IMG/VR virus record: IMGVR_UViG_3300048588_000315
Span: 1 to 63,934 of that record
Length of the DNA stretch: 63,934 nt
DNA from: a virus
Lineage: Duplodnaviria; Caudoviricetes
Strand: one strand, 5' to 3'
Shown here: piece after piece, positions 1,360-63,934 of the stretch
How positions within the stretch are numbered: position 1 is the stretch's first letter
Layout: the number at the start of each line of letters is the position of its first letter
Notes under the pieces: generated by a model
Databases searched by the model: none
Seen by the model: only the letters and a program-made list of their open reading frames with translations
What the model was told of the DNA's origin: nothing
Position numbers and translations under genes: made by a program

Positions 1360-1489
1360 GGTACGTTGCGCCTCCTTAGCGCTGTTCAGTCGACGGATCG
1401 ACCTGATCATCGTCGGGGTTGAGGAAGTTAAGATTCGCACTCTTCATCGCCTGTCGTAGCATGGCGATTTCTTCTTCGTTGAGCTTGCC
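1..1489. repeat. Diverged terminal direct repeat, copy 1 (pairs with 62461-63934)
   Basis: Identical over 1-104 and 1363-1489. The middle has many mostly third-position substitutions and is 15 bp longer than copy 2. Confidence 0.95.
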
Positions 1490-1852
1490 GTTAGCAGCGT
1501 CCTTCTCCAGACTGCGAAGCTGAGCCACGAGCTTCTTCGCCTTGTCGATCTTCGGTTGGAGCTTATGGAGCTTTTCCTCCTGACCGATCTTCTTCAGTTG
1601 TGAGACACATGACTGATAGCCTTTCTCGGCTCGTGCCTCGTGATCTTCCCACCACTCAATGTCCTCCTGAAGAACTGCTATCTTCATCTTCAGTTCGGCG
1701 ATGCGACGCTGTGCCTGACCGTTGATGAGCGACTTCCAGAAGTTCATCATGCCGATGAGCTTCGCTCGCTTCACGTACACTGCCTCAGCATCGATCTTCC
1801 TTTTCCGTGCTTTCGCTTTCGCTTCTTTCCTGCTTGCCTTTGATTTCACCAT
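1376..1852 (-). CDS. Hypothetical basic coiled-coil protein
   Basis: 158 aa ORF with strong TAAGGAGG RBS; its stop overlaps the helicase RBS. Confidence 0.85.
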   Translation of the reverse strand: MVKSKASRKEAKAKARKRKIDAEAVYVKRAKLIGMMNFWKSLINGQAQRRIAELKMKIAVLQEDIEWWEDHEARAEKGYQSCVSQLKKIGQEEKLHKLQPKIDKAKKLVAQLRSLEKDAANGKLNEEEIAMLRQAMKSANLNFLNPDDDQVDPSTEQR

Positions 1853-1898
1853 TGTCAGGCCTCCTTAGCCTGCTTCCATTGAAAACTGTTTCTGCCTG

Positions 1899-2240
1899 CT
1901 GCGGCCCTGCGGCCCTGCCTGCGGCCCTGCGGCCCTGCGGCCCTGCCTGCGGCCCTGCGGCCCTGCCTGCGGCCCTGCGGCCCTGCCTGCGGCCCTGCCT
2001 GCGGCCCTGCGGCCCTGCCTGCGGCCCTGCGGCCCTGCGGCCCTGCCTGCGGCCCTGCCTGCGGCCCTGCGGCCCTGCGGCCCTGCGGCCCTGCCTGCGG
2101 CCCTGCGGCCCTGCCTGCGGCCCTGCGGCCCTGCCTGCGGCCCTGCGGCCCTGCCTGCGGCCCTGCGGCCCTGCCTGCGGCCCTGCGACCCTGCCTGCGG
2201 CCCTGCGGCCCTGCCTGCGGCCCTGCCTGCGGCCCTGCTG
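1899..2240. repeat. GC-rich microsatellite of GCGGCCCT (8 bp) and GCGGCCCTGCCT (12 bp) units
   Basis: Directly visible tandem array of about 340 bp between two genes. Confidence 0.95.
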
Positions 2241-2241
2241 T

Positions 2242-2985
2242 TCACAGCGTCATGTCGGGCCGCATTTTCTTTTCGCCTTCGATGCCATTGGCGTGAAGAC
2301 CGACTTCACGTGCATCGGCGGCTCCCTTGTAATAGGCATCACCGACAACGTTCTTCCTGCGGACGATCGCCTTGCCGAGACCACCCGGTATGTTGGAAGT
2401 GAACCAATCGTTGATGACATCGGCCTTCCGCACTACGATCGCCGTGCATTTGTTGTCCTCGGTCTTCCGCATTTCCTTGGCACGACACACGAGCTCAGCG
2501 ACGAACCCCTCGCAGTACGATGCAGTCTCCGCCGCCTGATTCCTGCGATAGTGCTGAAGCGACATCGCACGGATTGTGGCATGGAGCGCTGTATAGAGCG
2601 ACTTCGCGACTTCCACGTCGCGCTGAAGACCGACGAAATGGATCTCGGTCTTTCCAGTCTTCCACGAACGGATGAATGACTTCGTGTCGCAGATGAGATC
2701 GACGACATACGGCAGAGACTTCCGCCACGACCGAACCGTCTTGCCCGAGAGCTCGACGTAGTCCTCAACTGCCTGGACCCGGCATTGCTGCTGATCCGCT
2801 TGACGAAACATCGCCTCGTCTTCGGCGATGCCATACTTCTGCATCAGCTTCCGGCACTGAGAAGCCGCCGTCGCAGCTTCGTCGACCGTGCATCCACGGT
2901 CGGTTGTCATGCGCATCAGCTTGGCGATCTGCCCGAGGATTCGTTCCTTTGCCGACTGTTCCTTTTCACGCTCTTGCTCTGTCAT
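2242..2985 (-). CDS. DUF2786-family protein
   Basis: N-terminal ERILGQIAKLMRM...EAATAASQCRKLMQKYGI pattern; start moved to the ATG after the TAAGGAGG RBS. Confidence 0.75.
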   Translation of the reverse strand: MTEQEREKEQSAKERILGQIAKLMRMTTDRGCTVDEAATAASQCRKLMQKYGIAEDEAMFRQADQQQCRVQAVEDYVELSGKTVRSWRKSLPYVVDLICDTKSFIRSWKTGKTEIHFVGLQRDVEVAKSLYTALHATIRAMSLQHYRRNQAAETASYCEGFVAELVCRAKEMRKTEDNKCTAIVVRKADVINDWFTSNIPGGLGKAIVRRKNVVGDAYYKGAADAREVGLHANGIEGEKKMRPDMTL

Positions 2986-3015
2986 GGTAGGCCTCCTTAG
3001 CCTATAAGGTTGACT

Positions 3016-3084
3016 GCCTGTTCTCAACGTGAGAGCAGACTGGTCTCCGGCTTACCGTAGCAAGCCGGAGTGCAGTGCGCTGTC
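3016..3084 (-). ncRNA. Structured intergenic leader motif, copy A
   Basis: GACAGC-nn-ACTG-CA-stem-AC-CAGT followed by a CTC..GAG hairpin; covaries with three other copies. Confidence 0.7.
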
Positions 3085-3310
3085 ACCAGTGAATGTCCGT
3101 CGCCGGGATGAGAAGATCGCCTCGTTCGTTAAACGGCAGGCAGATCCAAGCATCTCCGTCTATTCGCAGTTCGTCCAGCGGTCGGGCAAGTCGCGCCCAG
3201 TCATACAAGCTGTTAGATCCATACATGGTCCACAGTTCATTGGGTGAACTGCAATTGAAGTCGCGACATGGATCAGACCTGAGCCCGAACCTGATCGATG
3301 CAATCGACAT
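3083..3310 (-). CDS. Hypothetical protein
   Basis: 75 aa from MSIASI, AAGGAGG RBS. Confidence 0.7.
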   Translation of the reverse strand: MSIASIRFGLRSDPCRDFNCSSPNELWTMYGSNSLYDWARLARPLDELRIDGDAWICLPFNERGDLLIPATDIHW

Positions 3311-3321
3311 AGCGACCTCCT

Positions 3322-3801
3322 TCACAGCAGTGTCGCCGGATCGGCGATGAACTGAATCGCTTCCCATCGCCGGCGCGCATCGGCCAGTACGCGCTCCAAC
3401 GTCGGTCCGTGCATCACGCTGATCTGATCGAGATCGTAGGCCTCACGATGCTCCAAGGCGTTTTTGATGCGAAGGTGCATCTCCTCTTCGGTGATGATCT
3501 CACGATCATCGCGCATCGACCGGAGAACGCTGAACGCCATGAACTTCCATTCAGCATCGTTATGCTTGTAGATCCGGACTTCCAGATCGCCGATGTCATC
3601 CGGTCCCTTGCCCTCGTCGTAGTCGTGGTAGTCGAGGACCCACGAATGGATGCTGTTCGTGTAAGGTGTCCGTGCCGGTTCAACATGCTGACGGAGGGTC
3701 GGCACGACGCTGAAGTCCCAGTGCTTCAGATTTCCGGCTGGCTCCGCCGCTTGAAGGATGCGGGTCGCGACAGGGACGGACAAGTGCGGGTTCTTCGACA
3801 T
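3322..3801 (-). CDS. Hypothetical protein
   Basis: 159 aa from MSKNPH, TAAGGAGG RBS. Confidence 0.8.
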   Translation of the reverse strand: MSKNPHLSVPVATRILQAAEPAGNLKHWDFSVVPTLRQHVEPARTPYTNSIHSWVLDYHDYDEGKGPDDIGDLEVRIYKHNDAEWKFMAFSVLRSMRDDREIITEEEMHLRIKNALEHREAYDLDQISVMHGPTLERVLADARRRWEAIQFIADPATLL

Positions 3802-3863
3802 GGTAGGCCTCCTTAGCCTATGAGGTTGAGACTGGCTCGCTGCTACATTGCAGCGAGCCACAG

Positions 3864-3905
3864 ACAAAGGGAAAGCTCGGCGTTTCCGCCGAGCTCCCGC
3901 TTCCC
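3864..3905 (-). terminator. Probable intrinsic terminator or attenuator hairpin
   Basis: Minus strand AGCTCGGCG-GAAA-CGCCGAGCT followed by TTCCCTTTG; a second hairpin lies at 3833-3860. Confidence 0.5.
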
Positions 3906-3931
3906 GGAATGCGGACCGAGGCGCCGACGAA

Positions 3932-4405
3932 TCAGGCCTTCGCTTCCTCGCCTTCCTCCTCGCTGTCCGGCTTGGCGAGCTCCTTGAGCTGATCCATGGT
4001 GAGACCGGCTTCCTTGAGTTGCTTCTCCAGGTCGGCCAGCGCGTTGATGACGCGAAGTCCCTTCTTGACGACCTTCGCCTGCTTCTCGTCGCCCATCGCG
4101 GCGAGCTGCTTCGCCTTGGTCTCGAGCTTCCCGGCCTTCGCCGTCATCTGCTCGGCCTTGAAGCGAAGCTCAGCGGCAGTGTGTTCGAGATACGCGGCCG
4201 TCGACTTGAAGTCCTTCTTCTTCAGCGGTTTGTTGACCTTGAAGTCGAAGCCGTCGGGGATCGCCTTCTCGAACGGATAGTCCGACTTCTTCGCCGGAGT
4301 GAAGGCGACGCGCTTCTTGCTCGCCTTCTTGTCCGCCTTCTCCGAGCCGGAACCTTGCTGCTGCTGACCACCGACGCGACGCGATTCAGACTGAGACTTG
4401 GCCAT
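3932..4405 (-). CDS. Hypothetical Lys-rich protein
   Basis: 157 aa, AAGGAGG RBS, strongly biased codon use. Confidence 0.85.
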   Translation of the reverse strand: MAKSQSESRRVGGQQQQGSGSEKADKKASKKRVAFTPAKKSDYPFEKAIPDGFDFKVNKPLKKKDFKSTAAYLEHTAAELRFKAEQMTAKAGKLETKAKQLAAMGDEKQAKVVKKGLRVINALADLEKQLKEAGLTMDQLKELAKPDSEEEGEEAKA

Positions 4406-4492
4406 GATAGGCCTCCTTGTTACTGCCGCGGAATTGCGGACAGTGAATCGGCACCGAGGACGTTACTCCGCGATGCCTTTATGAATCAGTGA

Positions 4493-4714
4493 TCAGTGGA
4501 GCAGATCGTACGCTTGCTGAAGCAAGCGAGACACTTGGAGATTGATCTGGCCTCCAAGAGATTCGGATCCTCTGGCGACCGCGGACTCCTGGAAGATATC
4601 CATGAGTGCCGACACGACTTCCTTCTCGCCAGCTTCGCCGATGAGCCGGAGCAGCGCGGCTTTCACGTGATCGACACGAGCCTCGGCCTCAAGCCGGTCA
4701 CCATGCTCCGTCAT
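4493..4714 (-). CDS. Hypothetical protein
   Basis: 73 aa from MTEHGD; ATGA overlap with the upstream stop. Confidence 0.65.
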   Translation of the reverse strand: MTEHGDRLEAEARVDHVKAALLRLIGEAGEKEVVSALMDIFQESAVARGSESLGGQINLQVSRLLQQAYDLLH

Positions 4715-5064
4715 CTTCGAAGTGGCGTTGGAATCGAGAGCGTTGAAGCAGCGCGATGAGCGGCATCCACGGTACGCTCGGTGAAGTCCTCGCTGAGAGG
4801 CGGCACGGCATCGGTCAGCGCTTTCGCGATCGGCTTCAACGCTGGCGTGTAGTGCTGATCGACGCGTTCCTTCGCGTCCTTGTAGATGACGCCGACCGAC
4901 CCGTCCCACTCACCGATGGGCACGACGCCATCTTCGGTGAACGCGCTGCAGATGTCCTTGTCGCCATCCCACTTCGCTTCGAAGTCGATGGCCCGAACCG
5001 CCGCCTTCCAAGACTTGTAGTTGCTGAACTCACGCTCGCCGAGATGATTGATGCTCTTCGCCAT
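4711..5064 (-). CDS. Hypothetical protein (paralog of 5565-5771)
   Basis: 117 aa, TAAGGAGG RBS; WKAAVRAIDFEAKWDG...DG..IGEW matches the 5565 ORF. Confidence 0.8.
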   Translation of the reverse strand: MAKSINHLGEREFSNYKSWKAAVRAIDFEAKWDGDKDICSAFTEDGVVPIGEWDGSVGVIYKDAKERVDQHYTPALKPIAKALTDAVPPLSEDFTERTVDAAHRAASTLSIPTPLRR

Positions 5065-5099
5065 AGTGTAGGCCTCCTTAGCCTAGTGTTGTGAACTGT

Positions 5100-5160
5100 C
5101 CGTCTCAGCATTGAGAGCGGATCGGTCTCGGGCCCGAAGGCCCGAGTGCGATGCGCTGTC
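5100..5160 (-). ncRNA. Structured intergenic leader motif, copy B
   Basis: GACAGC-GC-ATCG-CA-CTCGGGCC-TTCG-GGCCCGAG-AC-CGAT; C(UUCG)G tetraloop on the sense strand. Confidence 0.7.
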
Positions 5161-5162
5161 GC

Positions 5163-5474
5163 TTACTTCAAACTGCCGTCGGCTCGGGCCGCACAGAACT
5201 TCTTCGCGGCCTTCTTCGCCTTGCCTTTCTTCGCCTTGCCTTTCTTCGCCTTGCGATGCTTCGGCTTGCGACGCTTGATCACGTCACCGAGGACGCTGGC
5301 GTCCATCGGCAACGTGAGCTCCTTGCTCGCCTTCGCCTTCAGGCGATCGATGCGGGACTCGATCCGCTTGACTTCCTTGTCACGCTTGCGGAGCAGCGCG
5401 ATGCACTGCTTCTGCAGCTTGCGGATTTCAGACAGGACCGAATCGAACCGACGCTTGCTGAACTGCTTCGACAT
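5163..5474 (-). CDS. Small highly basic protein with histone H1-like KAKKG repeats
   Basis: 103 aa, KAKKGKAKKGKAKKAAKK tail, TAAGGAGG RBS. Confidence 0.8.
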   Translation of the reverse strand: MSKQFSKRRFDSVLSEIRKLQKQCIALLRKRDKEVKRIESRIDRLKAKASKELTLPMDASVLGDVIKRRKPKHRKAKKGKAKKGKAKKAAKKFCAARADGSLK

Positions 5475-5505
5475 GGTAGGCCTCCTTAGCCTAGAACATT
5501 GAATG

Positions 5506-5566
5506 CCACTCTCACCTTGAGAGCGGACCGGTCTCGGGCCCGAAGGCCCGAGTGCGGTACGCTGTC
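5506..5566 (-). ncRNA. Structured intergenic leader motif, copy C
   Basis: GACAGC-GT-ACCG-CA-CTCGGGCC-TTCG-GGCCCGAG-AC-CGGT-CCGCTCTC..GAGAGTGG. Confidence 0.7.
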
Positions 5567-5771
5567 ATCGATACGTGTCAGCGATGACACGCTCGTATCC
5601 CTTCTCTGTCAGCACTGAACCGATGTTGCGCTTCCGCTTCCAGTTGCCGAGAGCGATGCATCCGTCCTTGTCGTACGCCACGATCATGTCACCGCGTCCT
5701 TCGAACTCGGCTTCCGGGTCCAGAGCACGAACTTGCTTCTTCCACGCTTCGAACTTGTTGATCCACTTCAT
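5565..5771 (-). CDS. Hypothetical protein, first gene of the putative early run
   Basis: 68 aa from MKWINK, TAAGGAGG RBS. Confidence 0.75.
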   Translation of the reverse strand: MKWINKFEAWKKQVRALDPEAEFEGRGDMIVAYDKDGCIALGNWKRKRNIGSVLTEKGYERVIADTYR

Positions 5772-5802
5772 ATAGGCCTCCTTAGCCTGATTAGAGAACA
5801 CG

Positions 5803-5871
5803 CTGCACTCAACGCGAGAGCAGTTCGGTCCCGATCCGCTATTGCATACGGATCGGGTGCGAAATGCTGTC
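5803..5871 (-). ncRNA. Structured intergenic leader motif, copy D
   Basis: GACAGC-AT-TTCG-CA-CCCGATCCG..CGGATCGGG-AC-CGAA-CTGCTCTC..GAGTGCAG. Confidence 0.7.
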
Positions 5872-6286
5872 GTTCATTTCACTGAGACCCGTTTCGGCTT
5901 CGCGCGATTCATTGGATTGAGCAGGATCCAAATTTCGCGGTTATCCAAAACGTGTAGCAAGCTACGCTGCTATCACAGCAGTGTCTCACCAGCTTGCTAA
6001 CGGCAGGAAGGATTTTCTTTCGGTGAACGGTTTTCGCCAAATTCATCACCTACGAATCCGTACCCATTTTCTTCACACGACACGATCGGGTCGCAGCAGT
6101 TCTTCACAGAACAAACCACTTTTTCAGGGACTGTTTCGTTGCCTACTTGAGAATCCGGCGGCACGTATTTTCTCGCTCGCGCCATTGCAGAATTCCCGCC
6201 CTGCTTTCCCGCACCGTTTCACGCGTCACGCGTTTTCGTGCGTCCTGCCGTCTTCACTTGTCATTTACTACAGCTATAATTTACCA

Positions 6287-6312
6287 TAACCACTTGTGAT
6301 GACAAGTGGTTA
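6287..6312. promoter_or_regulatory. Operator-like palindrome TAACCACTTGT-GATG-ACAAGTGGTTA
   Basis: Perfect 11-bp inverted repeat with an extra half-site at 6255-6264, in an AT-richer non-coding region next to a TATAAT. Confidence 0.5.
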
Positions 6313-6438
6313 GCATCATTTCTCCTCAATTTTCTTCAAATTGTTCATTTTCCGTAAACCGAGCAATTTCAACGACTTACGACGGATTCTCGCCACGTTT
6401 CGCGGTTTTCCGCCGCTGGCCCCTCTTATATAGCTTCG

Positions 6439-6487
6439 GCGGCAGGGCGGCAGGGCCAGCGGCAGGGCGGCAGGGCCAGCGGCAGGA
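6439..6487. repeat. Short GGCAGGGC/GGCAGGGCCAGC microsatellite, inverted relative to the other copies
   Basis: Reverse complement of the 8/12-bp units at 24.5-24.75 kb and 55.06-55.2 kb. Confidence 0.8.
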
Positions 6488-6494
6488 TCCATAG

Positions 6495-8474
6495 CTACCG
6501 AATTGGAGACGCCACGATTTTCCCTTCCACCGTGATCGGCTTTTCGCATCCTGCTTCGGCCCAGTTTCTGTCACTGAATCCCATGTCGATGATGATCGGC
6601 ACGAGGAACGGAGAGGAGACGGATTCCATCGTTTCACGGAAATGCCGATGCAGTCTTGGATCTCGCGCTGCTTCATGAGGAACGTAGGAATCCGTGGAGT
6701 CGTGGACGAGAGCGAAGAGACGCATCCCGAAATCGCGAGAAGTGGAGTTGTATCGCGGGGCGAGAGCGACGACTCGCTCTTTCATCACATCGGCCGCCGA
6801 AGACTGAATGACCGCGTTGAATGCTTTATGAGCCGCCTTGTCTGGAAGAGTCCTCACTCTGCCGAAGTGATTGAACACGTTCCCGCGCATCTTGATCGTG
6901 TCCATCGCCTTCCGAGACGTCGCGCGAATTCCAGGCAGTCGTTCGTGATACGTTGAGTAGACGTCATCGGCTCGCTTCTCAACGAACTCGTTGAACGCCA
7001 GCGCTCGGTTCGCTTCATCCAGTGTTCCGGCCTTGATCAGAGCCGAGACGGTCTCAGTAGCTTCAGCGATGATGTCAGGGTTCGTTACGAGACGCTTCTT
7101 CGTCGTTCGCTTTCCAGCCCCGAACGCCATCGTGAAGTTCAATGTCTTCGCAGGCTTCCGTTTGATCGTGCAGAGTTCGGCGACCCATCGATGAAAGTCC
7201 GTTCTCGGGTTCTGCCGATACGCTTCGATCGCCGTCTCGTCAACGATGTAGTGAACGATCAGGCGAAACTCGATCTGCGAATAGTCGCCACCGAAGATCG
7301 AATACCCATCAGGCGGAATGATGAGCTCCTTCGCCCGGCTGTTCAACTGCTGCGCATTAGGCTTCCGGCACGAGAGACGTCCAGTGCGAACGCATTGGTT
7401 GTATGACGGATGCAGGACTCCGTCGACGTTCAGTTCATCGTAGGTCTGCAGAAACAGTCCGTGGAACTGAGACTCCTTCTTGTACGTCGCCATCAAGTTG
7501 AGGATCTTCTTGACACGTTCATCGAAAAGCACTTTCGGGTGGACAGCGTATGCCGCCATCGCTTCCTTGTCGAAGGATGGATTGCCAGTCTTGTCGTCTC
7601 GCTTGAGGACCGGAAGGCCGAGCTGATTGACCAGAAGATCGTAGGTCTGCGGCGAAGAGTTCGGGTTCATCTCATAGCCGAGCAGCTTCGCCAGCTTCTC
7701 TTCCAGCATGATCATGTGCTGAAGCGTCTTGTAGCGCTCCATCTTCACACGGAGCCGATCCACTCTCATGCCCTCTTCTTCGATATCGAACAGGATCGGC
7801 GTGAAGAGAATCTCGGTCTCCCATACCTTGGCGCATCGTTCTGGCCTACGCCGAAGCATCTCGTGGTAGAGCTCTCTGTTACTGAGAACGTCGCCGCAAG
7901 CGTAGTGTCCGGCCAGATCGATCGGAAGATCACCATAGTCCTTCGACTTCAGTGCCGACAGGAACGCCGACACGCGGTCCTCTTCATGATCTTTCCATCC
8001 GCACCACTCTTGCCGGAGGACCTTCAATCCGTAGGAGAGCCGATCACTCTGGACCAGCTTGGCGAGAGTGTTCGTGTCAACCAATCGACCGCCGAATATC
8101 GCGCCGTCTCTCGCTGCGAAGTGCGCATCGAACAGAACGTTGTGATTGATCCAGTTCTCGCACGTAGCCAGCGTGTCTCTCAACCACGGACGGACGTTCT
8201 CTAACGGGAGATTCTTCGGGTGAGACTTCCACTCTCGCCCGGGATTCGCGTTGTGGCGGACCGGCACGAAGAAGGATCTCGGGTCGTCGTCTCGCGTGAC
8301 GGCGATGCCGCTGATCCTGTGACCGTGGAACGGCTGGAACGCTTCCACTTCGCGATTGAACGAAGTGGTCTCGAAGTCTTGGAAGAGCATCTTCGCGTTC
8401 ATCATGTCCGGTAATTCGGACGCGGACTCGACCACGAATCTGTTCTGGCCTAGTGAGATCATGGCGACGGGCAT
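6495..8474 (-). CDS. DNA polymerase family A with 3'-5' exonuclease
   Basis: Exo motifs DFETT and HNVLFD; polymerase motifs TGRLSC, DYSQIEFR, KTLNFTMAFG, VHDS. Confidence 0.95.
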   Translation of the reverse strand: MPVAMISLGQNRFVVESASELPDMMNAKMLFQDFETTSFNREVEAFQPFHGHRISGIAVTRDDDPRSFFVPVRHNANPGREWKSHPKNLPLENVRPWLRDTLATCENWINHNVLFDAHFAARDGAIFGGRLVDTNTLAKLVQSDRLSYGLKVLRQEWCGWKDHEEDRVSAFLSALKSKDYGDLPIDLAGHYACGDVLSNRELYHEMLRRRPERCAKVWETEILFTPILFDIEEEGMRVDRLRVKMERYKTLQHMIMLEEKLAKLLGYEMNPNSSPQTYDLLVNQLGLPVLKRDDKTGNPSFDKEAMAAYAVHPKVLFDERVKKILNLMATYKKESQFHGLFLQTYDELNVDGVLHPSYNQCVRTGRLSCRKPNAQQLNSRAKELIIPPDGYSIFGGDYSQIEFRLIVHYIVDETAIEAYRQNPRTDFHRWVAELCTIKRKPAKTLNFTMAFGAGKRTTKKRLVTNPDIIAEATETVSALIKAGTLDEANRALAFNEFVEKRADDVYSTYHERLPGIRATSRKAMDTIKMRGNVFNHFGRVRTLPDKAAHKAFNAVIQSSAADVMKERVVALAPRYNSTSRDFGMRLFALVHDSTDSYVPHEAARDPRLHRHFRETMESVSSPFLVPIIIDMGFSDRNWAEAGCEKPITVEGKIVASPIR

Positions 8475-9486: not shown

Positions 9487-10530
9487 TCAGCGTTCCCTTC
9501 TTCGTTTGAGCATGTCAACGACCGCCGCGTTCCAGACGCGGTTCTTCAAGTACTTCTCGAAGTCGTTCTCGTCAGTGATCCACTTCAGTGCTGCCATGAC
9601 CATCAGTTGCCCACAGAGAGAGTTCTGGCCAACGAGATCCATTGACGGAGCGCTGATGCATTTGTGCTTTCGATTGTGCGGCTCCGACTCGACAGAGACC
9701 TTCACGGCGTGAGAGATCTTCGTTTGATGATGATCGTACTTCACGGTGCGAATGGAGTATCCGTCAACGATCGACTCTTCAGCAGCTGCTCGGTTCCTGT
9801 CGTAGAGATGCATCGAACCGACCTGATGCTGATACCATCCAACTTCGGCACGGAGAGCCTCGGCAACGAGGATCTGGATGCCGCAGAAGCAGAAGACGTC
9901 GTACGGCAGGCCGAGCCATGCGTCATTCGATCTCATCGTGCAGATGAGATTCAGCTTCCCCGCTCGCAAGATGAACTGAAGCGACAGCGTGCAAGGAATG
10001 TCGTTCTTGATTCCAGAGAGACCGTAGAGCAGATCCGACGGGTTGAATAGCGCGATCACTGCCTGCCGAGAGTCTGGCTTCTCAGTGAGCATTGAGATCA
10101 CGGCGCTGATAGCGCTGTTCGCCGGTTTGTTCTTCAGCGCTCGATGGAGCTCCTCGTCGTAGAACGGTCGCGGAGAGCCGGGATCTATTACGGCGGAGAA
10201 CCCATGATGGTCCGCCATACGATGACCGTATGCTCCATGAGCGACGCCATTGTTCACGAATCTCGTGTACTGTGGCGCATATGGAACGATGCGGTCAATC
10301 TTGTTCTCGCCACTGAGATACCACAGCAGTTCCGCAGCGGCATAGCTCGGGCACATCGCTCTCACAGGATTCTGCAGCAGGGACTCCGCTGGATACAGCA
10401 GTCGCGCCGCGAACCCCATGCGTTCTCGCGACGCTCCATCACGAGAACCAGTATCTTCGCCGCAATCGAGAATGTCTTTGATCGTGGCGAGCCACATCTC
10501 ATCAATGCACTCAAAGTTCTGTGGATACAT
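9487..10530 (-). CDS. Thymidylate synthase-family enzyme, probable pyrimidine dNMP hydroxymethylase
   Basis: DSRQA, DIPCTLSLQF, MRSND..LGLPYDV, GSMHLY motifs; start set at the ATG after AAGGAG. Confidence 0.85.
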   Translation of the reverse strand: MYPQNFECIDEMWLATIKDILDCGEDTGSRDGASRERMGFAARLLYPAESLLQNPVRAMCPSYAAAELLWYLSGENKIDRIVPYAPQYTRFVNNGVAHGAYGHRMADHHGFSAVIDPGSPRPFYDEELHRALKNKPANSAISAVISMLTEKPDSRQAVIALFNPSDLLYGLSGIKNDIPCTLSLQFILRAGKLNLICTMRSNDAWLGLPYDVFCFCGIQILVAEALRAEVGWYQHQVGSMHLYDRNRAAAEESIVDGYSIRTVKYDHHQTKISHAVKVSVESEPHNRKHKCISAPSMDLVGQNSLCGQLMVMAALKWITDENDFEKYLKNRVWNAAVVDMLKRRRER

Positions 10531-11036: not shown

Positions 11037-13978
11037 TAGAACGATTCCTTTCCTGTCGACTTGCCAGTCTCAGGCAGACCTTCTGCCTTCATCTGCTTCA
11101 GTAGAACGATGAACTCATCCGTCTTGTAGTAGCATCTCTGCTTTCGGTACAGCGCATGCTTCCGAACCAACAGACTGACGAGAGTCTTCACGATATCCGA
11201 ATCTGCCTCGCACCAATCTGCTATGTCACTCGCCGTGATCTCATCGGCGAACAGCAGAGAATCCACGAAGTCTTTCGGATGCTTCGTGCCGATGATATGC
11301 TTCTTGACGATGTCAGGATCCCTGACCTGAGAGGCAAACGTCTGTGCTTGGCTGAAGTCCCGATACCCGAACGTCTGCGAGTCGTAGACTGACTGAAGAA
11401 ACTTCGCCACGAACTCCACGTGACACGGCCGAACCACGAGATCACTCCCAGTCGTCGTGCTGAACGTTCTAGCAGCCATTGCAGCTGCGAGTCTCGCCAG
11501 CTTGTGCCGCATGGTCCCTTTGTCAACGAGAGGCAGAGCCTCCGAGTACAGCCCGCACAGCTTGATTGCCTGATCCACGATCACGTCGTTCGTCTTGCTG
11601 TCAATGACCACTTCATCGACATCTCGCGTCCAACTCCACAGAACGAGACGACGGCAGAGATTCGGAGCGAACGTACAGTCGTTTTTGCTCACTTTTCTGC
11701 TCATCTCATTTATGACGCTTGAGGAGACTTGTTTCTCAGCAGCTACAAGAGCGAAATCGAACCGCCGAATGTCCTCCAATCCGCCCATCAGTTCTCGTAT
11801 CGCTTCGATGCCGAAGTTGTAGGCGGACATCGGCCTGCCGGACCGCGGATTGGAGATGAAGATCAGCCGAGTTCTGGCGTAGGCCCGTCGCTTCTCGATC
11901 TTCGGTAGCTCTGCGATGCCCGACGAACGCATGTCGGTTAGCTTCGCTAGAACCTCCGGGTCAGCGCCTTTCACTTCTTCCATGACGACAAGCCGACGGT
12001 CGTGCGTTGGAATGACTCCCCACGACACGAACCATCGGGATGTGCCGAACTGCTGCAATCCACCGAGGAGACCGGCAACGGACGCGTTCTTGCAGTCCAC
12101 GCGCTCGCCGAGGCCGTAGTGCTCCATGAGGCGGATCGCCGTTTCGGATTTCCCTTGAGAAGAGTCGCCGATGATGAGCGAGTTGATCCATCCCTTGACG
12201 GCTCGCCCATCGAACGGCAAGCTGAGGACGGAGTGGAAGGTGAGATCTATGCCAAGGTGAAGCTCTGGCCTCTTGAAGATTCTGGTTACGTTCGATGAGA
12301 AGTCTTCGTGGATCGCGTTCCACTTGTCGTTCACAGCTTCCGCCGTCCACGAAGAAGGCTGGAAGATCTTCAACTCGCTAAGCTGCTCCTCGGTCGGCTC
12401 GAACATATTCAAGCTGTCATCACCGGCCTCAGCCTCATCTAGGAGCAAGACTGCCTGCTGGCTCTTCGGCGCTGGATGCACTCGGCCGCGGAACTTGTAT
12501 GGAGAGTTCATCTCGAAGTTCTGCCCGATACAGAACGCGGGCTGCATCACGTTCTCACTGGCGCGATTGCCGATGTGAAGCTGAGGCGTGATCCTGATCT
12601 CAGTCACATTGAAGTAGCTCTCGACAGTGAGAGTGACCGCCTTGCACGGCGGGATGCGGAGAGCGTTCATGATCGCCTCTCGCTGGCCTGACTTCGGAGC
12701 ATTCACCATTTCCAGAACACCAATGGAAGTTCCCTTCACCGTGAGATGAACGAGACCGCTGTCCTTGTCAGGTGATTCGGGGAAGATCGGGCATCGTTCA
12801 CAATTGTTCTGGTCCTTCGTGCACGATGCGTTGATGTTCTTCGGTATGAGGAAAGGAGTCTGGTCCATTGCCGAGATGACGCCAGCTACTTCGATCCGCC
12901 GACCGACGTACTTCGCCAGCGTAGCTTCACTGAGAATCGGCTTCTCCGGCTCCTCTTTCTTCTCATCTTCGAACTGATCAATGTCGTCCCTGTTAGCGGG
13001 CTCCCATTTTCTGGCGTTGACCATCAAGCTCAGCAGATCCTGATCCGTCGCGCCTTCGCTCCCTACGTAGTCGTTGATGTCTCCCTTCGGGTAGACGCTG
13101 CGCTCTAGCGGCAGATCGATGATGTGAAGCGAGGATGTGAACCGCCGGAGAAATGGGGCCAGCTTGTTGATGGCGATAGTTCCACCATCGTCAATGTCCA
13201 TACATAGGTAGACGCGCTTGTCCTTGAACAGCGGCCCTGTGGACGGGTCGTAGTTACCTTCGCCTGCCGTATAGGTCGTCGCGCCGATGTTGTGCTGATT
13301 CAGCAGGGAGGCTGCAACGATCGCCTTCATTTCACCGCCGCAAAGCCAGATCGTCGGATATTCGATCTGCTTCGGCATGTAGAGCCGAACTCCGCCGTAT
13401 CCCTTCACGTTCTTCATCTTCTCAGCGCCTGGAGCGCCTGGAAGATATCGGCGAAGATTGACTATGTCTCCAGCAGCATCGTAGACCGGGATGATGATCC
13501 GGCCCTCGTGGTACCCGAGGCGAGCTCGGCGGATCATCTCATCTGTGAGGCCGCGATCGTAGAGAGCCTTGAGAAGAGGGCCAGCGGACCAGATCTGTTC
13601 GTGGTGTTTCTCAACGACGCGAGGATCGATCTTCTTCTTCGCCCTGATGCCGTACCGCGTACTGAGCTCTTCTACTACGGTGAACCGCGATACGTTAGCT
13701 ATCAGGGCGATGAGAGTGACGACATCGCCGTCCTTGCCGCATGAAGCAGCATGGCACTTCCACAGATTCTTCTTCACGTTCATCGTCGCGCTTGGCGATT
13801 CGTCCTTATGGGCCGGACAACAGAACCTGATCTCTTCCTCGCCGATCGGTTCGTACCGATAGCCGAGACGATCCAGCTCTGCAAGCGCGTTGATGAGTTC
13901 AATCTTCAATGACATACGCTGATCTACACTGTAAAACGTGCCTCGCCCGGTGGAGCGAGACACGTGTTCCGGCGGCAT
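11036..13978 (-). CDS. Primase-helicase fusion (Zn finger + TOPRIM + MCM-like AAA+)
   Basis: CPAH..WKCHAASC; GGEMK/DIDDGG/GDINDY TOPRIM; IGDSSQGKS, GLLGG, ISNP, RRFD MCM-like motifs. The true start may be the ATG at 13915. Confidence 0.85.
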   Translation of the reverse strand: MPPEHVSRSTGRGTFYSVDQRMSLKIELINALAELDRLGYRYEPIGEEEIRFCCPAHKDESPSATMNVKKNLWKCHAASCGKDGDVVTLIALIANVSRFTVVEELSTRYGIRAKKKIDPRVVEKHHEQIWSAGPLLKALYDRGLTDEMIRRARLGYHEGRIIIPVYDAAGDIVNLRRYLPGAPGAEKMKNVKGYGGVRLYMPKQIEYPTIWLCGGEMKAIVAASLLNQHNIGATTYTAGEGNYDPSTGPLFKDKRVYLCMDIDDGGTIAINKLAPFLRRFTSSLHIIDLPLERSVYPKGDINDYVGSEGATDQDLLSLMVNARKWEPANRDDIDQFEDEKKEEPEKPILSEATLAKYVGRRIEVAGVISAMDQTPFLIPKNINASCTKDQNNCERCPIFPESPDKDSGLVHLTVKGTSIGVLEMVNAPKSGQREAIMNALRIPPCKAVTLTVESYFNVTEIRITPQLHIGNRASENVMQPAFCIGQNFEMNSPYKFRGRVHPAPKSQQAVLLLDEAEAGDDSLNMFEPTEEQLSELKIFQPSSWTAEAVNDKWNAIHEDFSSNVTRIFKRPELHLGIDLTFHSVLSLPFDGRAVKGWINSLIIGDSSQGKSETAIRLMEHYGLGERVDCKNASVAGLLGGLQQFGTSRWFVSWGVIPTHDRRLVVMEEVKGADPEVLAKLTDMRSSGIAELPKIEKRRAYARTRLIFISNPRSGRPMSAYNFGIEAIRELMGGLEDIRRFDFALVAAEKQVSSSVINEMSRKVSKNDCTFAPNLCRRLVLWSWTRDVDEVVIDSKTNDVIVDQAIKLCGLYSEALPLVDKGTMRHKLARLAAAMAARTFSTTTGSDLVVRPCHVEFVAKFLQSVYDSQTFGYRDFSQAQTFASQVRDPDIVKKHIIGTKHPKDFVDSLLFADEITASDIADWCEADSDIVKTLVSLLVRKHALYRKQRCYYKTDEFIVLLKQMKAEGLPETGKSTGKESF

Positions 13979-14074
13979 TGTCCTAGGGCAGTCCGCGAAT
14001 CGCGGAGCTTAGTCTTACCTATAGCTGAGCGCCGAAGGCGATCGCCACCGAGAATTAGAAGAGAACCGATCGAA

Positions 14075-14914
14075 TCAGAAGCTGCGCTTGTCCTCGGGGC
14101 CAAGGTCGGTCTCGCCGTCGCCCTCGCGATCGGAGTGATCGACGATGAGCTTCTGCTTCGCGATCATGGCCAGAAGTTCTTCGTGGGCGGCGAGGGACTT
14201 CTCAACTTCTTCTTCCGGAATGATGCGCTCATCCTCTTCCGGCACTTCGGCGACGTCGATACCGAACCACTTCTTGTCGCCGCCGCGATCACGCCAGCCG
14301 ACCGTGATCTCCCAAAGCTGTGCCCAGAGGGGAGCCTTGATCATTGCGATGCGAGTGGCGAAGTTCCGGCCGACAGTGAATTCGCCACGAGCGAAGACCA
14401 TCGCGACCATCTCGCCGGCGAGATCGTGCTCTCCGCGGATCATGCAGATGAAGTTGAGGTGTTCGCAGAAGCGATACGTGTACTGATCCTCCTTGCCGTA
14501 CTTCTCCTTCCGGCCTTCGATGCTGCGCGCCTTCTGGGCTACTTCGCTTCCCGGATCGAAGGACCGAGTGATGATGGTCGGGCTCTGCTTGTCCTTGATG
14601 TCGGCGAACTGACAGAAGTCAGTGTAGAACACGAGAGGCTGGAGCCGAACCATGCGGTCCGACTTTCGGGTCTTCCGGTCCAGATCGGCGACGATCGCCT
14701 GATTCGGCCAGAGGATGATCGCGCCCGGCTGGAACTTCTGCTGGATCTCGGTTCCGGCCGTGCCCTGAACGATCTTGAGACGAGGAACGACGCGATACTG
14801 GTTCAAGGCGTCCTTCGACTTGTCGTTCTCGACATATTGTGCGAGGTACGACGGCACTCCGGCCGGAGGCTTGACCAGTGTCTTGTCCTGATTGGGTTCA
14901 TTCCGCTTTGCCAT
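14075..14914 (-). CDS. Probable ssDNA-binding/replication protein
   Basis: 279 aa in the replication block, with an acidic C-terminal tail ending in Phe. Confidence 0.55.
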   Translation of the reverse strand: MAKRNEPNQDKTLVKPPAGVPSYLAQYVENDKSKDALNQYRVVPRLKIVQGTAGTEIQQKFQPGAIILWPNQAIVADLDRKTRKSDRMVRLQPLVFYTDFCQFADIKDKQSPTIITRSFDPGSEVAQKARSIEGRKEKYGKEDQYTYRFCEHLNFICMIRGEHDLAGEMVAMVFARGEFTVGRNFATRIAMIKAPLWAQLWEITVGWRDRGGDKKWFGIDVAEVPEEDERIIPEEEVEKSLAAHEELLAMIAKQKLIVDHSDREGDGETDLGPEDKRSF

Positions 14915-14920
14915 TGTTGT

Positions 14921-15556
14921 TCATCCTTCGTGGTTTGATTCTTCGGACTTCTTACGTTGAAGCTTCGATAGAGCCAGTGGCTCAGCCAGCTTGTCCTTTC
15001 TTCGCCGAAACTCACAGACGAAGCTAGGCCAAGTCTTAGTGATTCCAGGAGGCATGTTCTTCGCGTCCTGCGCTCTCTTCGTCACCAGATCGCACAGTTC
15101 CTGGAACTTGAACGACAAGACGCCAGAGTCGAGAAGCTCTCTGTCGGTGATGCCGAGCCATGCCATCAGTTGAAGGTACTCCGGAGTTCCAGGTTGAGGA
15201 ATCTTCGGAATCTGCTTCACATCCGGAGTGGCAATGGAAAACCGGCCTCGCACGGAATCGACAACCTTGCTAGGGTCGGCGACGCGAGCTTGAGCAGTGA
15301 CAAAGGCGATGACCTTACCGCATAGTTCTTTTCGGGCACGAGCCTCCTTTCTTGTTTCATCCACAGACTTCTCGATCTCGCGGCAGAGAAAGCCCAGATC
15401 GGCGAGCTCCTCAAGTGTGAACTTGCGGGACTGAATCCCGTTCAGGGTATCTGCCGTGAACGTGTAGACCTCCATGAGAAGGTCCTCAACACGCACTCTC
15501 AGTTCGTCAGCCCTCTCGATTGCTTTCTGTCCTTCACTCAATTGTTTTGGCGGCAT
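14921..15556 (-). CDS. Hypothetical protein
   Basis: 211 aa from MPPKQL after GAGG. Confidence 0.75.
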   Translation of the reverse strand: MPPKQLSEGQKAIERADELRVRVEDLLMEVYTFTADTLNGIQSRKFTLEELADLGFLCREIEKSVDETRKEARARKELCGKVIAFVTAQARVADPSKVVDSVRGRFSIATPDVKQIPKIPQPGTPEYLQLMAWLGITDRELLDSGVLSFKFQELCDLVTKRAQDAKNMPPGITKTWPSFVCEFRRRKDKLAEPLALSKLQRKKSEESNHEG

Positions 15557-17991: not shown

Positions 17992-18690
17992 TTATCTCCA
18001 CTTCCAGATATCAACGAGAGCGTAGATTTCCTGGACGCTCAGGTTAGACGCTCGCCCGCTGGCGTAGTTATGGCCCGCTGTCACGTTGTATTCCATCAGC
18101 TTCAGGTCTGTCTGCGCCGTGACAGTGATGACGCCAGCGCATTCCGAGATGTTCGTCGCCACGTTGCTCCCGCTCGCAGAGGCATCTCCTATGATGAGAT
18201 CCGTATCAGGAGTCCCATGTGCCACGATCTTCACCTTCTTGCTGATCGCGTACCCGACACTCCGGGCGCGAATGAAGTACTTCCCGGCTTGGATTCTCAT
18301 TCGGTTCGACGTGATCGACACTATACCGCCAGCGTCGGTGATCTCAGTATTCACTGGGCGCTGATACCATGTATTGTCGGTCGGCACGGCAGGATTCGTG
18401 TTCAGCGTAGCAGTGTGAGCGATCTGCGCGTACGACGGGCCGCTGGACATCGCGTTCCACACTCGGCCATCCGACACGTAGATGGTGACCGTCCCGCCAG
18501 AGATGACGAGGGCTGCACATGACGGGTACAGCGCGGCCGACGGCAGAGAGCCGACGAGCGTGTATGCTTTGATCGGGATCGGCGCTGCGATGAAGCCGAA
18601 CGCTGTGCTCAGTTCGGTGTTCAGCGCAGATTGCCATCCGCTCTGAGACATGTCGACGGAGTTGTGAGTAGGGTACGTTCTCTGTGCCAT
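17992..18690 (-). CDS. Tail fibre-associated protein (one copy of the same module)
   Basis: LPSAALYPSCAALV...VSDGRVW matches the modules in 16563-17990. Confidence 0.7.
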   Translation of the reverse strand: MAQRTYPTHNSVDMSQSGWQSALNTELSTAFGFIAAPIPIKAYTLVGSLPSAALYPSCAALVISGGTVTIYVSDGRVWNAMSSGPSYAQIAHTATLNTNPAVPTDNTWYQRPVNTEITDAGGIVSITSNRMRIQAGKYFIRARSVGYAISKKVKIVAHGTPDTDLIIGDASASGSNVATNISECAGVITVTAQTDLKLMEYNVTAGHNYASGRASNLSVQEIYALVDIWKWR

Positions 18691-18692
18691 GA

Positions 18693-39949: not shown

Positions 39950-40203
39950 GATTCGGTCTCCTTGTCTTTCTGTGCCCGATCCTTTCGGGCCTTGATCACG
40001 CCGGACGCCATCAGCACGATGCCGATGCCGCCGACGAGTTGTTCCACGTATCCTTGAGCGTCCCCCCATCCTTCGATGGTCGTCGTGTCAATGCCGATCT
40101 TCGTGGCGAAGACAGACAGCAGGATCATGGTCAACCCTGCGATAGCACGGCGCACTCCGGGAATGGAGAGCAGCGACCCCACGATTCTCCACGCCTTTGA
40201 CAT
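39946..40203 (-). CDS. Holin-like two-TM protein
   Basis: 85 aa, two hydrophobic helices, charged C-terminus. Confidence 0.6.
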   Translation of the reverse strand: MSKAWRIVGSLLSIPGVRRAIAGLTMILLSVFATKIGIDTTTIEGWGDAQGYVEQLVGGIGIVLMASGVIKARKDRAQKDKETES

Positions 40204-43200: not shown

Positions 43201-43418
43201 CCGAAGAAAACATCAAACGCGGTCGTGGACTTCGACGAGATCCAGTACTTCTCGCCGTCGATGAACATGTCACTGCTGTCATCGTGGAACCAGATCCAGA
43301 AGTCCTGACCCGTATTGTTGCGAGTCCACTTCTGCTTGCCGTTCTTGGTTCCGTCGACAGTGTGATCGCCGTTCTTTCGCGTATCACCAGCGCCGGACAT
43401 GACGATTTTCGTACTCAT
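40203..43418 (-). CDS. Large acidic protein with tandem Ig-like (choice-of-anchor D / ASH-like) repeats
   Basis: Five repeats of V.GN.V.I..GD.TPS..D.TDFG ... F.P...G...ATV.I ... FTF.I.G. Confidence 0.85.
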   Translation of the reverse strand: MSTKIVMSGAGDTRKNGDHTVDGTKNGKQKWTRNNTGQDFWIWFHDDSSDMFIDGEKYWISSKSTTAFDVFFGGPDSEYLRAPADPDNENVPPKFGWTAHNSETAIPDICTVDIEENKRGLVLSCGGTPDPTGLLFRWKDMANDYAVFIADGNGYHVAYQSGQWELRTGVTAFAGTLLAHCLDDGGIPSMAGGWEPDGGWDGDVFAVNAWEFGYTTAALPPLSIYQFDEWVADTGVVGEDPGETALDVVQGTSPGHLKIVFRDPWPGSDPFTDGALNVGIVFDEPEALTGQDRTLLALRTRGQITTIAGSYSGAAKMKFGSGGSNIGGEYPFNLESGGQDCTRWLTPDLSNFPADPELDALSDLADIHVLIEPGGNNTCLNVTTFEVDARYSYWASLAPGLADYTVSGNAVVIESGDTTPSVTDDTDFGTTDTGAPVAHEFTIEVDGGTITISGDIELSGANADQFSITQPETTESISSETFTVTFNPTSAGVKTATVSFDAGGNPSTYTFDITGTAQVTIREAIVSGNGVEIDSGDTTPSVADHTDFEECIVDLTEDRTYTIEAGVDNEAALSIGTITIEGDDADQFEVHAQVGDATLDAEETTTFTIRFSPTSEGAKVATVVIPMNRTDENGTPIAGDFEFDIAGDCVPVPSDPELEVYGNDVLITSGDATPDPADDTDFGNVDFGNNTDVVFELNEAAGLELTLTGTPKVVLSGANAADFEVTDQPTSPIEAFGGDTFTIRFTPSAVGVRSATVTIASNDPASPFTFAIQGTGRAFVPEVADETLEVSIANGDDTPSTEDGTDFGDVIVHAGGSEHTFTITNAGEASGNVTGPATLSGDGAYAFTITGQPTTDPLAPDAATDLVVSVDPTIAGVVTATVSIPHSGPDSPFTFDITATGVVAPEITVTGNGVEIVDADATPSSGDWTAFGNVYTNTYAERTYRITNDGSGDLSVTMAEGSGDFAVVHGAGAQVIPAGESALVVVRFTPSSAEAKTGTLTITSDDEDEGTYTFALSGTGVAPVSGGGGNSAKSNIRVKRKFFPILSPDYVHDLLSELIPNDTVDEKAKGT

Positions 43419-63804: not shown

Positions 63805-63934
63805 AGGACGTTGCGCCTCCTTAGCGCTGTTCAGTCGACGGATCGACCTGATCATCGTCGGGGTTGAGGAAGTTAAGATTCGCACTCTTCATCGCCTGTC
63901 GTAGCATGGCGATTTCTTCTTCGTTGAGCTTGCC
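62461..63934. repeat. Diverged terminal direct repeat, copy 2
   Basis: Matches 1-1489; the last 127 bp are identical to 1363-1489. Confidence 0.95.
63821..63934 (-). CDS. 3' end of the 1376-1852 gene (duplicate, partial)
   Basis: Identical to 1376-1489. Confidence 0.85.
   Translation of the reverse strand, partial: GKLNEEEIAMLRQAMKSANLNFLNPDDDQVDPSTEQR

Follow-up and report, generated by a model that had tools for sequence, protein, structure and literature searches.

We analysed the whole of IMG/VR virus record IMGVR_UViG_3300048588_000315, a stretch of 63,934 bp (hereafter the window) with a CheckV completeness of 100 %, and identified four copies of a structured RNA element that punctuates an array of small genes downstream of the DNA polymerase gene. 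Our preferred interpretation, to which we would assign a probability of about 0.5, is that the element is an intercistronic mRNA processing element at which polycistronic RNA is cut between gene cassettes. In related phages, syntenic arrays carry type II hammerhead ribozymes in the same slot between stop codon and Shine–Dalgarno (SD) sequence. The narrower proposal that cutting is done by a host enzyme of RNase III type, acting on the extended hairpin that the element forms, is offered tentatively, at rather less than even odds.

The four copies, designated A to D, were all found on the minus strand where an earlier note on this sequence had placed them (Table 1). The pattern GACAGC-N6-CA-N16-40-AC-N5-YGCTCTC matched the minus strand of the window four times, exactly at these copies, and the plus strand not at all; a reversed control pattern likewise gave no match. 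The 5′ GACAGC and the CA/AC internal loop were identical in all four copies, as the note had claimed, and the full set of invariant blocks comprised GACAGC, G-CA-C, G-AC-C and C-GCUCUC. Copies B and C were 94 % identical over 50 nt and were the two copies in which C(UUCG)G tetraloops had correctly been read on the sense strand. With the related loop of copy A, cUNCGg loops were present in three of the four copies. The reading that the motif begins within the upstream stop codon also held for copies A and C. The stop codon upstream of copy B (TAA 5165-5163) lies 2 nt ahead of GACAGC, and no open reading frame (ORF) of at least 30 aa ends at copy D. All four copies end 31–35 nt before an ATG.

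Folding of single copies was compared with dinucleotide shuffles, giving z-scores of −3.6 to −4.7, with 0, 1, 0 and 0 of 200 shuffles folding as well as copies A to D, respectively. Pairing was then counted as the percentage of paired cells in a MAFFT alignment of the four copies, with shuffled alignments (n=500) and slid partners as controls. The structure originally proposed, in which helices P1 and P1b are followed by a second hairpin, P2, had 93.2 % of cells paired, compared to 81.1 % in the shuffles (none of 500 reached the observed value) and 24–47 % with slid partners. Covariation of P1 and P1b was fully upheld, their 13 pairs being paired in 100 % of cells and changed on both sides in nine cases. 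The same claim for P2 was only partly sustained. Its pair 52-70 was Watson–Crick in all four copies (C-G twice, U-A twice), but P2 was the weakest helix with 83 % of cells paired, a figure partly due to misalignment of copy B by MAFFT.

The possibility of an alternative fold, raised from three nucleotides of GACAGC (AGC) that could pair with the GCU that starts P2, proved to be larger than first described. These nucleotides belong to a full lower stem, in which GA-AGCR pairs with YGCU-UC and extends P1 downwards. The resulting extended irregular hairpin comprised 20 aligned pairs, 11 of them changed on both sides, with pairing in 98.8 % of cells; none of 500 shuffles was as good, and slid partners reached 21–44 %. 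Individual copies form 19–22 pairs plus four mismatched layers, arranged from base to tip as 2–4 bp, C·C, 4 bp, C·C or U·C, 4 bp (P1), CA/AC, 8–11 bp (P1b) and the apical loop. The lower-most pairs are UGA:UCA in copies A and C. Two lower-stem pairs vary, each of them on both sides: the four copies have G-C, G-C, G·U and A-U at columns 9-52, and U-A, U-A, C-G and one mismatch at columns 2-59.

The extended hairpin and P2 are mutually exclusive, and their predicted energies were similar. For the core sequence, the extended and two-hairpin folds were predicted at −37.3 and −33.5 kcal/mol in copy A, −29.9 and −34.0 in B, −32.8 and −36.1 in C, and −35.8 and −31.9 in D, a difference of no more than about 4 kcal/mol in any copy; when the full leader was included, the extended hairpin was equal or better in three of four copies. 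Column 52 was compatible with both of its partners, in the lower stem and in P2, in all four copies. By simple arithmetic, if the seven lower-stem pairs varied as those of P1 and P1b do (9/13), the probability of finding at least five of them invariant would be about 0.03. A column that fits both partners, together with unchanging core lower-stem pairs, is what a sequence under two alternative pairings would show. The earlier suggestion of a switch therefore stands as regards two exclusive folds of similar predicted energy, but not as regards an effect on translation initiation, as the predicted accessibility of the SD sequence was 0.60–0.61 in either fold. A simple switch that works by SD occlusion is not supported by these values. 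In the minimum-energy fold of copy A, the 5′ UGAC pairs with a segment 3 nt beyond P2 and so closes a three-way junction; this junction was seen in no other minimum-energy fold, and inspection by eye did not show it to be conserved in the other three copies.

A covariance model built from the four copies scored them at 74–87 bits, with the next best sense-strand match in the window at 15.5 bits. On the antisense strand the copies themselves scored 13.5–25 bits. These much lower antisense scores, together with the UNCG loops and a few G·U pairs, would place the structure in RNA transcribed from the minus strand.

Related phages were represented by 80 IMG/VR loci comprising 10 kb on each side of polymerases 35–48 % identical to that of the window (1.35 Mb). 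Several of these loci carried repeated intergenic words with CTGATGAG or CTGACGAG downstream of the polymerase, and these repeats are type II hammerhead ribozymes. One locus (L138) had two matches to the type II hammerhead family RF02276 at the gathering score, of 57.2 and 46.0 bits. Among the related records, RF02276 was matched at E≤0.01 in 22 of 80 (16/50 plus 6/30) and above the Rfam cut-off in 9 of 80, the latter proportion being 8 of 18 for records at least 90 % complete; it was matched in none of 14 control genomes. The matches often occurred as three to five copies within 1–2 kb. A simple descriptor, consisting of the hammerhead core plus two hairpins, identified 35 copies on the polymerase strand in 17 of the 80 loci and none on the other strand. 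A stop triplet, counted irrespective of reading frame, lay within 16 nt upstream of 30 of these 35 (typically TAA or TAG followed by GUC and GAAAC), and 32 of 35 were followed by an SD sequence and start codon at a median of 35 nt. By inspection, further copies were evident that neither method detected, for example in L145 and in L192, in the latter of which four of five gaps hold a hammerhead. Many members of the three- to five-copy arrays fell below the Rfam gathering cut-off with a core that was intact by eye. Repeated SD modules, specific to each locus, were also common in these arrays.

The gene g4 was the sole array gene found to be conserved across the phage family. It gave 34 tblastn matches in 31 of 81 related loci searched, all of them downstream of the polymerase and often two per phage. 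A hammerhead core signature was present within 140 nt upstream of the predicted start in 11 of the 34 homologues, compared to 50 of 1700 random windows. The small-gene arrays of this phage and its relatives are, as judged from sequence, homologous and syntenic. The phage under study gave no RF02276 match at E≤10, no descriptor match on either strand and no Rfam match at the gathering score, which rules out reading the element as a degenerate hammerhead. A search of 14 related loci with all of Rfam at the gathering score returned no ribozyme class besides hammerhead II. Clustered hammerheads on either side of individual genes or small groups of genes in prophages have been described by Perreault et al. 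(2011, PMC3088659), who take them to imply that long phage transcripts are cut to gene-length mRNAs and who report cleavage of native polycistronic fragments in vitro. The type II hammerheads at this position in the related phages are believed to perform the function proposed here for the element. Other RNAs were also observed in the region after the polymerase: L167 has a run of tRNA-like repeats at about 12640-15340, with a T-arm word occurring five times, and L156 has a transfer-messenger RNA and three tRNAs at 18261-19426 (a fourth tRNA lies at 9918-10000). This suggests that the post-polymerase region collects RNA elements that get processed.

From these observations a model for the element can be outlined. 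The sense transcript of the small-gene array would start about 400 nt ahead of copy D, at a promoter-like site. During transcription GACAGC-nn-P1-CA-P1b would fold first, after which GCUCUC would pair back to GACAGC to complete a hairpin of 19–22 pairs, interrupted by fixed C·C, Y·C and CA/AC mismatches and with the upstream stop codon in its base. A double-strand-specific endonuclease of the host, of RNase III type, may then cut this irregular helix, mainly on the 3′ strand, with the mismatches favouring one-strand cuts. The upstream message would retain a stable UNCG-capped hairpin as its 3′ end. In the downstream message, the freed GCUCUC would find a new partner in UGAGRG, so that P2 arises at the newly made 5′ end, 31–35 nt ahead of the SD module and ATG. 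In this way every cassette would be carried on a separate message, all with the same type of leader. A cut on the 3′ strand that frees GCUCUC for P2 would explain why both of the mutually exclusive folds are conserved, and the architecture of the products would be that of a hammerhead cut between stems III and I.

Support for processing thus comes from the syntenic hammerhead arrays in the same slot between stop codon and SD sequence, and from a hairpin as long and as irregular as RNase III substrates are. The 19–22 pairs correspond to the roughly two turns (about 20 bp) expected of such substrates, and the invariant C·C, Y·C and CA/AC mismatches provide helix distortions. To this extent the processing signal suggested in the earlier note gains support; transcription, cleavage, the enzyme and the cut site are inferred. 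A review by Nicholson (PMC3867540) describes how mismatches lead RNase III to make one-strand cuts that leave stabilizing 3′ hairpins, and describes five such signals in the polycistronic early RNA of T7. Several observations weigh against the proposed processing role. A single genome with four paralogous copies supplies all the evidence, such that covariation is seen among paralogues only. Five core pairs of the lower stem are invariant and thus beyond a test of covariation, with the two variable pairs lending weak support. No RNase III or double-stranded RNA-binding domain encoded by the phage was found, and the enzyme would therefore be the host's. The strict invariance of GACAGC, CA/AC and GCUCUC exceeds the generic needs of RNase III and points to a sequence-specific partner or to catalysis. 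Lastly, the other 23 of the 34 g4 homologues are preceded by a mixture that includes promoter-like sites, plain hairpins and terminator-like hairpins.

Searches for homologues and known families gave negative results throughout. Rfam 15 returned no match at the gathering score across the whole window, in agreement with the earlier statement that the motif is not a recognized family, and at E≤10 over 2900-6500 there were three weak matches, none of which overlapped a copy. The covariance model had no match in MW202657, the nearest phage in GenBank, and a single chance-level match (12.8 bits, E 9.9) in the 80 polymerase-linked loci. Fifty whole related records gave none at E≤0.1, the other 30 records being covered within 10 kb of the polymerase. 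A strict pattern had no matches in viral contigs, and a stricter one none in metagenome contigs. With a relaxed pattern, 71 single, chance-like matches were obtained in genome contigs, of which the best scored 19 bits with the model; a loose pattern gave 118 single matches in viral contigs, 100 of which were scored by the model with a best score of 24 bits and poor pairing. As far as these limited searches reach, the element appears specific to this phage. With no Rfam match and no homologue found, we regard it as new as an RNA family.

Four other explanations were considered. The strict invariance noted above would fit a cis-regulator that is not cleaved, either the target of a protein of phage or host that recognizes specific sequence (for example as a translational operator or for a stability factor), or a translation-coupled two-state insulator in which a ribosome at the stop codon melts the lower stem and P2 forms. 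Such a role would also suit the fixed 31–35 nt to the ATG, the stop codon inside the lower stem of copies A and C, the similar energies of the two folds and the presence of basic small proteins in the array (the Lys-rich tail of g2 and the Lys-rich g4 and g9). We nevertheless consider it unlikely, while conceding it a substantial chance, since predicted SD accessibility is equal in both folds, no RNA-binding domain was recognized in the neighbouring proteins, copy D has no upstream ORF to which it could be coupled, and the presence of ribozymes at the same slot in relatives would be left unexplained.

The same invariance raises the prospect of catalysis. An undescribed class of self-cleaving ribozyme may have replaced the hammerhead as intercistronic cutter in one phage lineage, with GACAGC, CA/AC and C-GCUCUC/UGAG as its active site, the covarying stems as its scaffold and fold switching as a possible control of activity. 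Its placement in the slot of the type II hammerheads, in a syntenic array of a phage that has no hammerhead, would be in keeping with this idea, as would a conservation pattern in which the helices covary freely while the unpaired or mismatched nucleotides between them are invariant. By eye, the two adjacent hairpins after a conserved 5′ segment also resemble stems III and I of the hammerhead, and a cut between them would yield the same product architecture. New ribozyme classes have reportedly been discovered by looking beside hammerheads and twisters, and a 2015 survey is said to have introduced twister-sister, hatchet and pistol in this way. We judge a ribozyme improbable on structural grounds: no junction, pseudoknot or conserved loop hints at tertiary folding, UNCG caps or variable sequences form the apical loops, and the only three-way closing helix is that of copy A. 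Ribozymes that consist of a tiny stem plus internal loop and cut at a CA step do exist, according to one report (PMC11620745), but the 1×1 and 2×2 internal loops found here are far below the 5- and 6-nt catalytic loops given there for RNAs like twister-sister. No weak match to any ribozyme family was obtained from Rfam at E≤10, and four paralogues lack the wide distribution that is usual for real classes.

A DNA-level site or relic, in which the repeats are stretches of homology that served, or were left behind by, the duplication and shuffling of cassettes in the manner of promoter-early stem-loop (PeSL) elements or integron attC sites, with no function as RNA, is more improbable still. The array does have features expected of such a history, namely paralogous genes after copies D and B that show duplication of at least one unit of motif plus gene, 94 % identity of B and C suggestive of recent conversion, SD modules repeated also where the motif is absent and inverted G+C-rich tandem repeats that bracket the array. 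These features do not account for compensatory changes that maintain pairing in 98.8 % of cells despite divergence of the stem sequence, which needs selection on structure, or for the strand-specificity of cUNCGg loops and G·U pairs. GACAGC, CA/AC and GCUCUC have remained unchanged though the paralogous proteins are only 37 % identical, and no tyrosine recombinase was detected (PF00589 had no match at E≤1 in the phage, whereas 14 of 14 control genomes were positive). Very improbable, finally, is an intrinsic terminator or attenuator that sets an expression gradient along the array. The stable G+C-rich hairpin right after a stop codon at each copy would fit such a role, but no U tract follows it or the second hairpin, and a terminator scan flagged none of the four copies yet flagged a canonical example at 3898-3871 in the same array.

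The array itself comprises genes on one strand only, with one promoter-like site upstream and one terminator-like site inside. Each copy of the element is followed by a gene that begins behind a conserved SD module, TAGGCTAAGGAGGCCTA, which occurs six times in the window where 0.03 occurrences would be expected. Its AGGC and GCCU segments can form a small predicted hairpin with the SD sequence in the loop. As an exact word the module had no matches in viral contigs. Two further gaps in the array carry different hairpins, one of them the terminator-like hairpin in Table 1. The gap before g5 (3804-3930, minus strand) consists of this terminator-like hairpin, then a different 11-bp hairpin and then a spacer like that of copy A with an SD module, and looks as if P2 had been exchanged for another hairpin.

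The region of about 620 nt between the stop codon of the polymerase (6495) and copy D has little coding potential and holds a 20-nt tandem repeat, a 22-nt palindrome and a promoter-like site. A scan with sigma-70-type consensus sequences found promoter-like sites only near 6253-6305 and 449-477, and none at the four copies. The site at 6305-6278 is the likely start of the array transcript, and the description of the array genes as early in the earlier note would follow only from this predicted site. TGAGA-N16-17-TAGGCT, noticed by eye at the copies, was considered as a promoter and judged unlikely, as the RNA would start inside the SD sequence.

Copies D and B are followed by g1 and g3, respectively, whose products are paralogous, with 37 % identity over 41 aa (E 2e-10). 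At least one unit of motif plus gene was therefore duplicated, long ago; that the invariant blocks are unchanged despite the divergence of the two proteins would indicate selection on these blocks. After copy B, two minus-strand ORFs overlap in different frames, 4711-5064 (117 aa) and 4493-4909 (138 aa), the first of which has the 41 N-terminal residues that resemble g1. This may reflect a frameshift, an assembly error or the presence of one real gene. G+C-rich tandem repeats with a 20-nt period were observed at 1926-2226 (15.6 copies, inside g8) and 6439-6486 (2.4 copies), with similar units in inverted orientation that bracket the array; they could be iterons, recombination sites or simple slippage. 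No tRNA was found in the phage with ARAGORN, and tRNA-like punctuation was dropped as an explanation. Mimicry of CRISPR repeats was also dropped, the stem sequence differing between copies; no search was aimed at it.

Table 1. Coordinates of the RNA element and associated features in the window, and of hammerhead arrays in related loci
Feature	Coordinates	Strand	Description
Copy A	motif 3084-3018; feature 3018..3086	minus	extended hairpin 3085-3030, base UGA:UCA includes stop TGA 3085-3083; P2 3038-3018; loop C(UACG)G; 87.4 bits
Copy B	motif 5160-5100; feature 5100..5162	minus	extended hairpin 5160-5113; P2 5120-5100; loop C(UUCG)G; 74.1 bits
Copy C	motif 5566-5506; feature 5506..5568	minus	extended hairpin 5567-5518 includes stop TGA 5567-5565; P2 5526-5506; loop C(UUCG)G; 83.9 bits
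Copy D	motif 5871-5803; feature 5803..5873	minus	first in array; extended hairpin 5872-5815; P2 5823-5803; 10-nt apical loop; 81.3 bits
SD module after copy A	2983..3004	minus	TAGGCTAAGGAGGCCTA with ATG (2985-2983)
SD module after copy B	5062..5085	minus	with ATG (5064-5062)
SD module after copy C	5472..5493	minus	with ATG (5474-5472)
SD module after copy D	5769..5789	minus	one mismatch; with ATG (5771-5769)
SD module without motif	3804..3820	minus	different hairpin ahead; spacer resembles that of copy A
Sixth SD module, without motif	1856..1872	minus	diverged, two mismatches
Promoter-like site	6305-6278; feature 6278..6310	minus	TTGTCA, 16 nt, TAAATT, with TG; overlaps 22-nt palindrome 6310-6289; about 400 nt upstream of copy D
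Terminator-like hairpin	3898-3871	minus	canonical, U-rich tail, inside array; from terminator scan
Small-gene array	1376..5771	minus	about 10 small genes, mostly ORFans
g1	5771-5565	minus	follows copy D
g3	5064-4711	minus	follows copy B
g4	4405-3932	minus	157 aa; family of unknown function, weak match to phrog_4405
g7	2985-2242	minus	DUF2786/DUF7168
g8	2245-1865	minus	low-complexity ORF rich in A, G, R, Q and P
Family A DNA polymerase	8474-6495	minus	
Hammerhead array, L138	15190-15256 and 16293-16364		
Hammerhead array, L124	about 12486-13650		
Hammerhead array, L145	about 13160-14230		
Hammerhead array, L163	about 5100-7230		
Hammerhead array, L192	about 12880-14000		

The long ORFs of the window all lie on the minus strand, and the array is situated between the DNA polymerase and SNF2 helicase genes in the direction of coding. 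Gene content includes a portal, a tape measure, tail proteins, a primase-like protein, thymidylate synthase and the SNF2 helicase, and the window represents a tailed phage whose structural module is siphovirus-like. The record's two ends, 1-1489 and 62461-63934, share 87 % identity across about 1.49 kb (19 gaps), and both span the 5′ part of the SNF2 helicase gene. Given this identity, the genome is probably circular or terminally redundant and was assembled across two strain variants, the ends of the record apparently not being true linear ends. The closest homologue of the DNA polymerase among 5.8 billion proteins was 50–51 % identical, that of MW202657 was 41 % identical and a single-protein search of viral contigs found no close relatives. 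A protein of 1071 aa encoded at 40203-43418 (minus strand) was observed to have a C-terminal Ig-like domain of DUF1573/ASH type; it is possibly a host-binding tail protein, and its domain might hint at the host group.

A phage family that punctuates a small, fast-evolving gene array with hammerheads thus includes a member in which a different conserved structured RNA is present at these positions. If this RNA is cut by a host nuclease, it would represent a natural case in which a ribozyme and a protein-dependent site are interchangeable for the cutting of polycistronic RNA, as well as a compact, modular ‘insulator’ part that combines a hairpin, a cut, a 5′ hairpin and a standard SD sequence. 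If it is self-cleaving, it would be a new ribozyme class found by guilt-by-association.

Among known systems, the type II hammerheads (RF02276) are alike in position, starting at or next to the upstream stop codon and ending about 35 nt before an SD sequence and ATG, as well as in having two adjacent hairpins and in occurring in small-gene arrays downstream of the DNA polymerase in the same phage family. They differ in their catalytic core, in which CUGANGA and GAAA are set around three stems with stem II open; this core is absent from the element. Twister-sister or ‘lantern’ ribozymes, as portrayed in PMC11620745, likewise have stems split by conserved internal loops and a conserved CA step; their catalytic loops of 5 and 6 nt contrast with the 2×2 loop here, and with no Rfam match of RF02681 type at E≤10 the resemblance is superficial. 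Integron attC sites resemble the element in that each cassette of an ORFan array has, on its 3′ side, an imperfect hairpin in which unpaired bases are conserved, but the phage has no tyrosine recombinase and the strand-specific RNA tetraloops point to RNA rather than to folded single-stranded DNA. T4-type PeSL elements are repeated stem-loop modules located in intergenic regions that flank small ORFan genes, and they include an early promoter. The element differs from these in that no promoter-like site was found at the copies and in that covariation and invariant mismatches indicate selection on the fold.

The RNase III signals of T7 early mRNA have one larger asymmetric loop, whereas the element has 1×1 and 2×2 mismatches and a competing P2 hairpin. 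The two are alike in being repeated irregular hairpins of about two turns between the cistrons of one phage transcript, a putative one in the present case, with copies that share sequence, and in having internal loops or mismatches of a kind that, as set out in PMC3867540, favours a cut on one strand with a 3′ hairpin left behind; the likeness is one of description, and no sequence relation is claimed. On the best reading, then, the element would be an intercistronic processing hairpin of a phage operon and so of a known kind, made unusual by its built-in alternative 5′ hairpin, its periodic C·C mismatches and its apparent substitution for a hammerhead.

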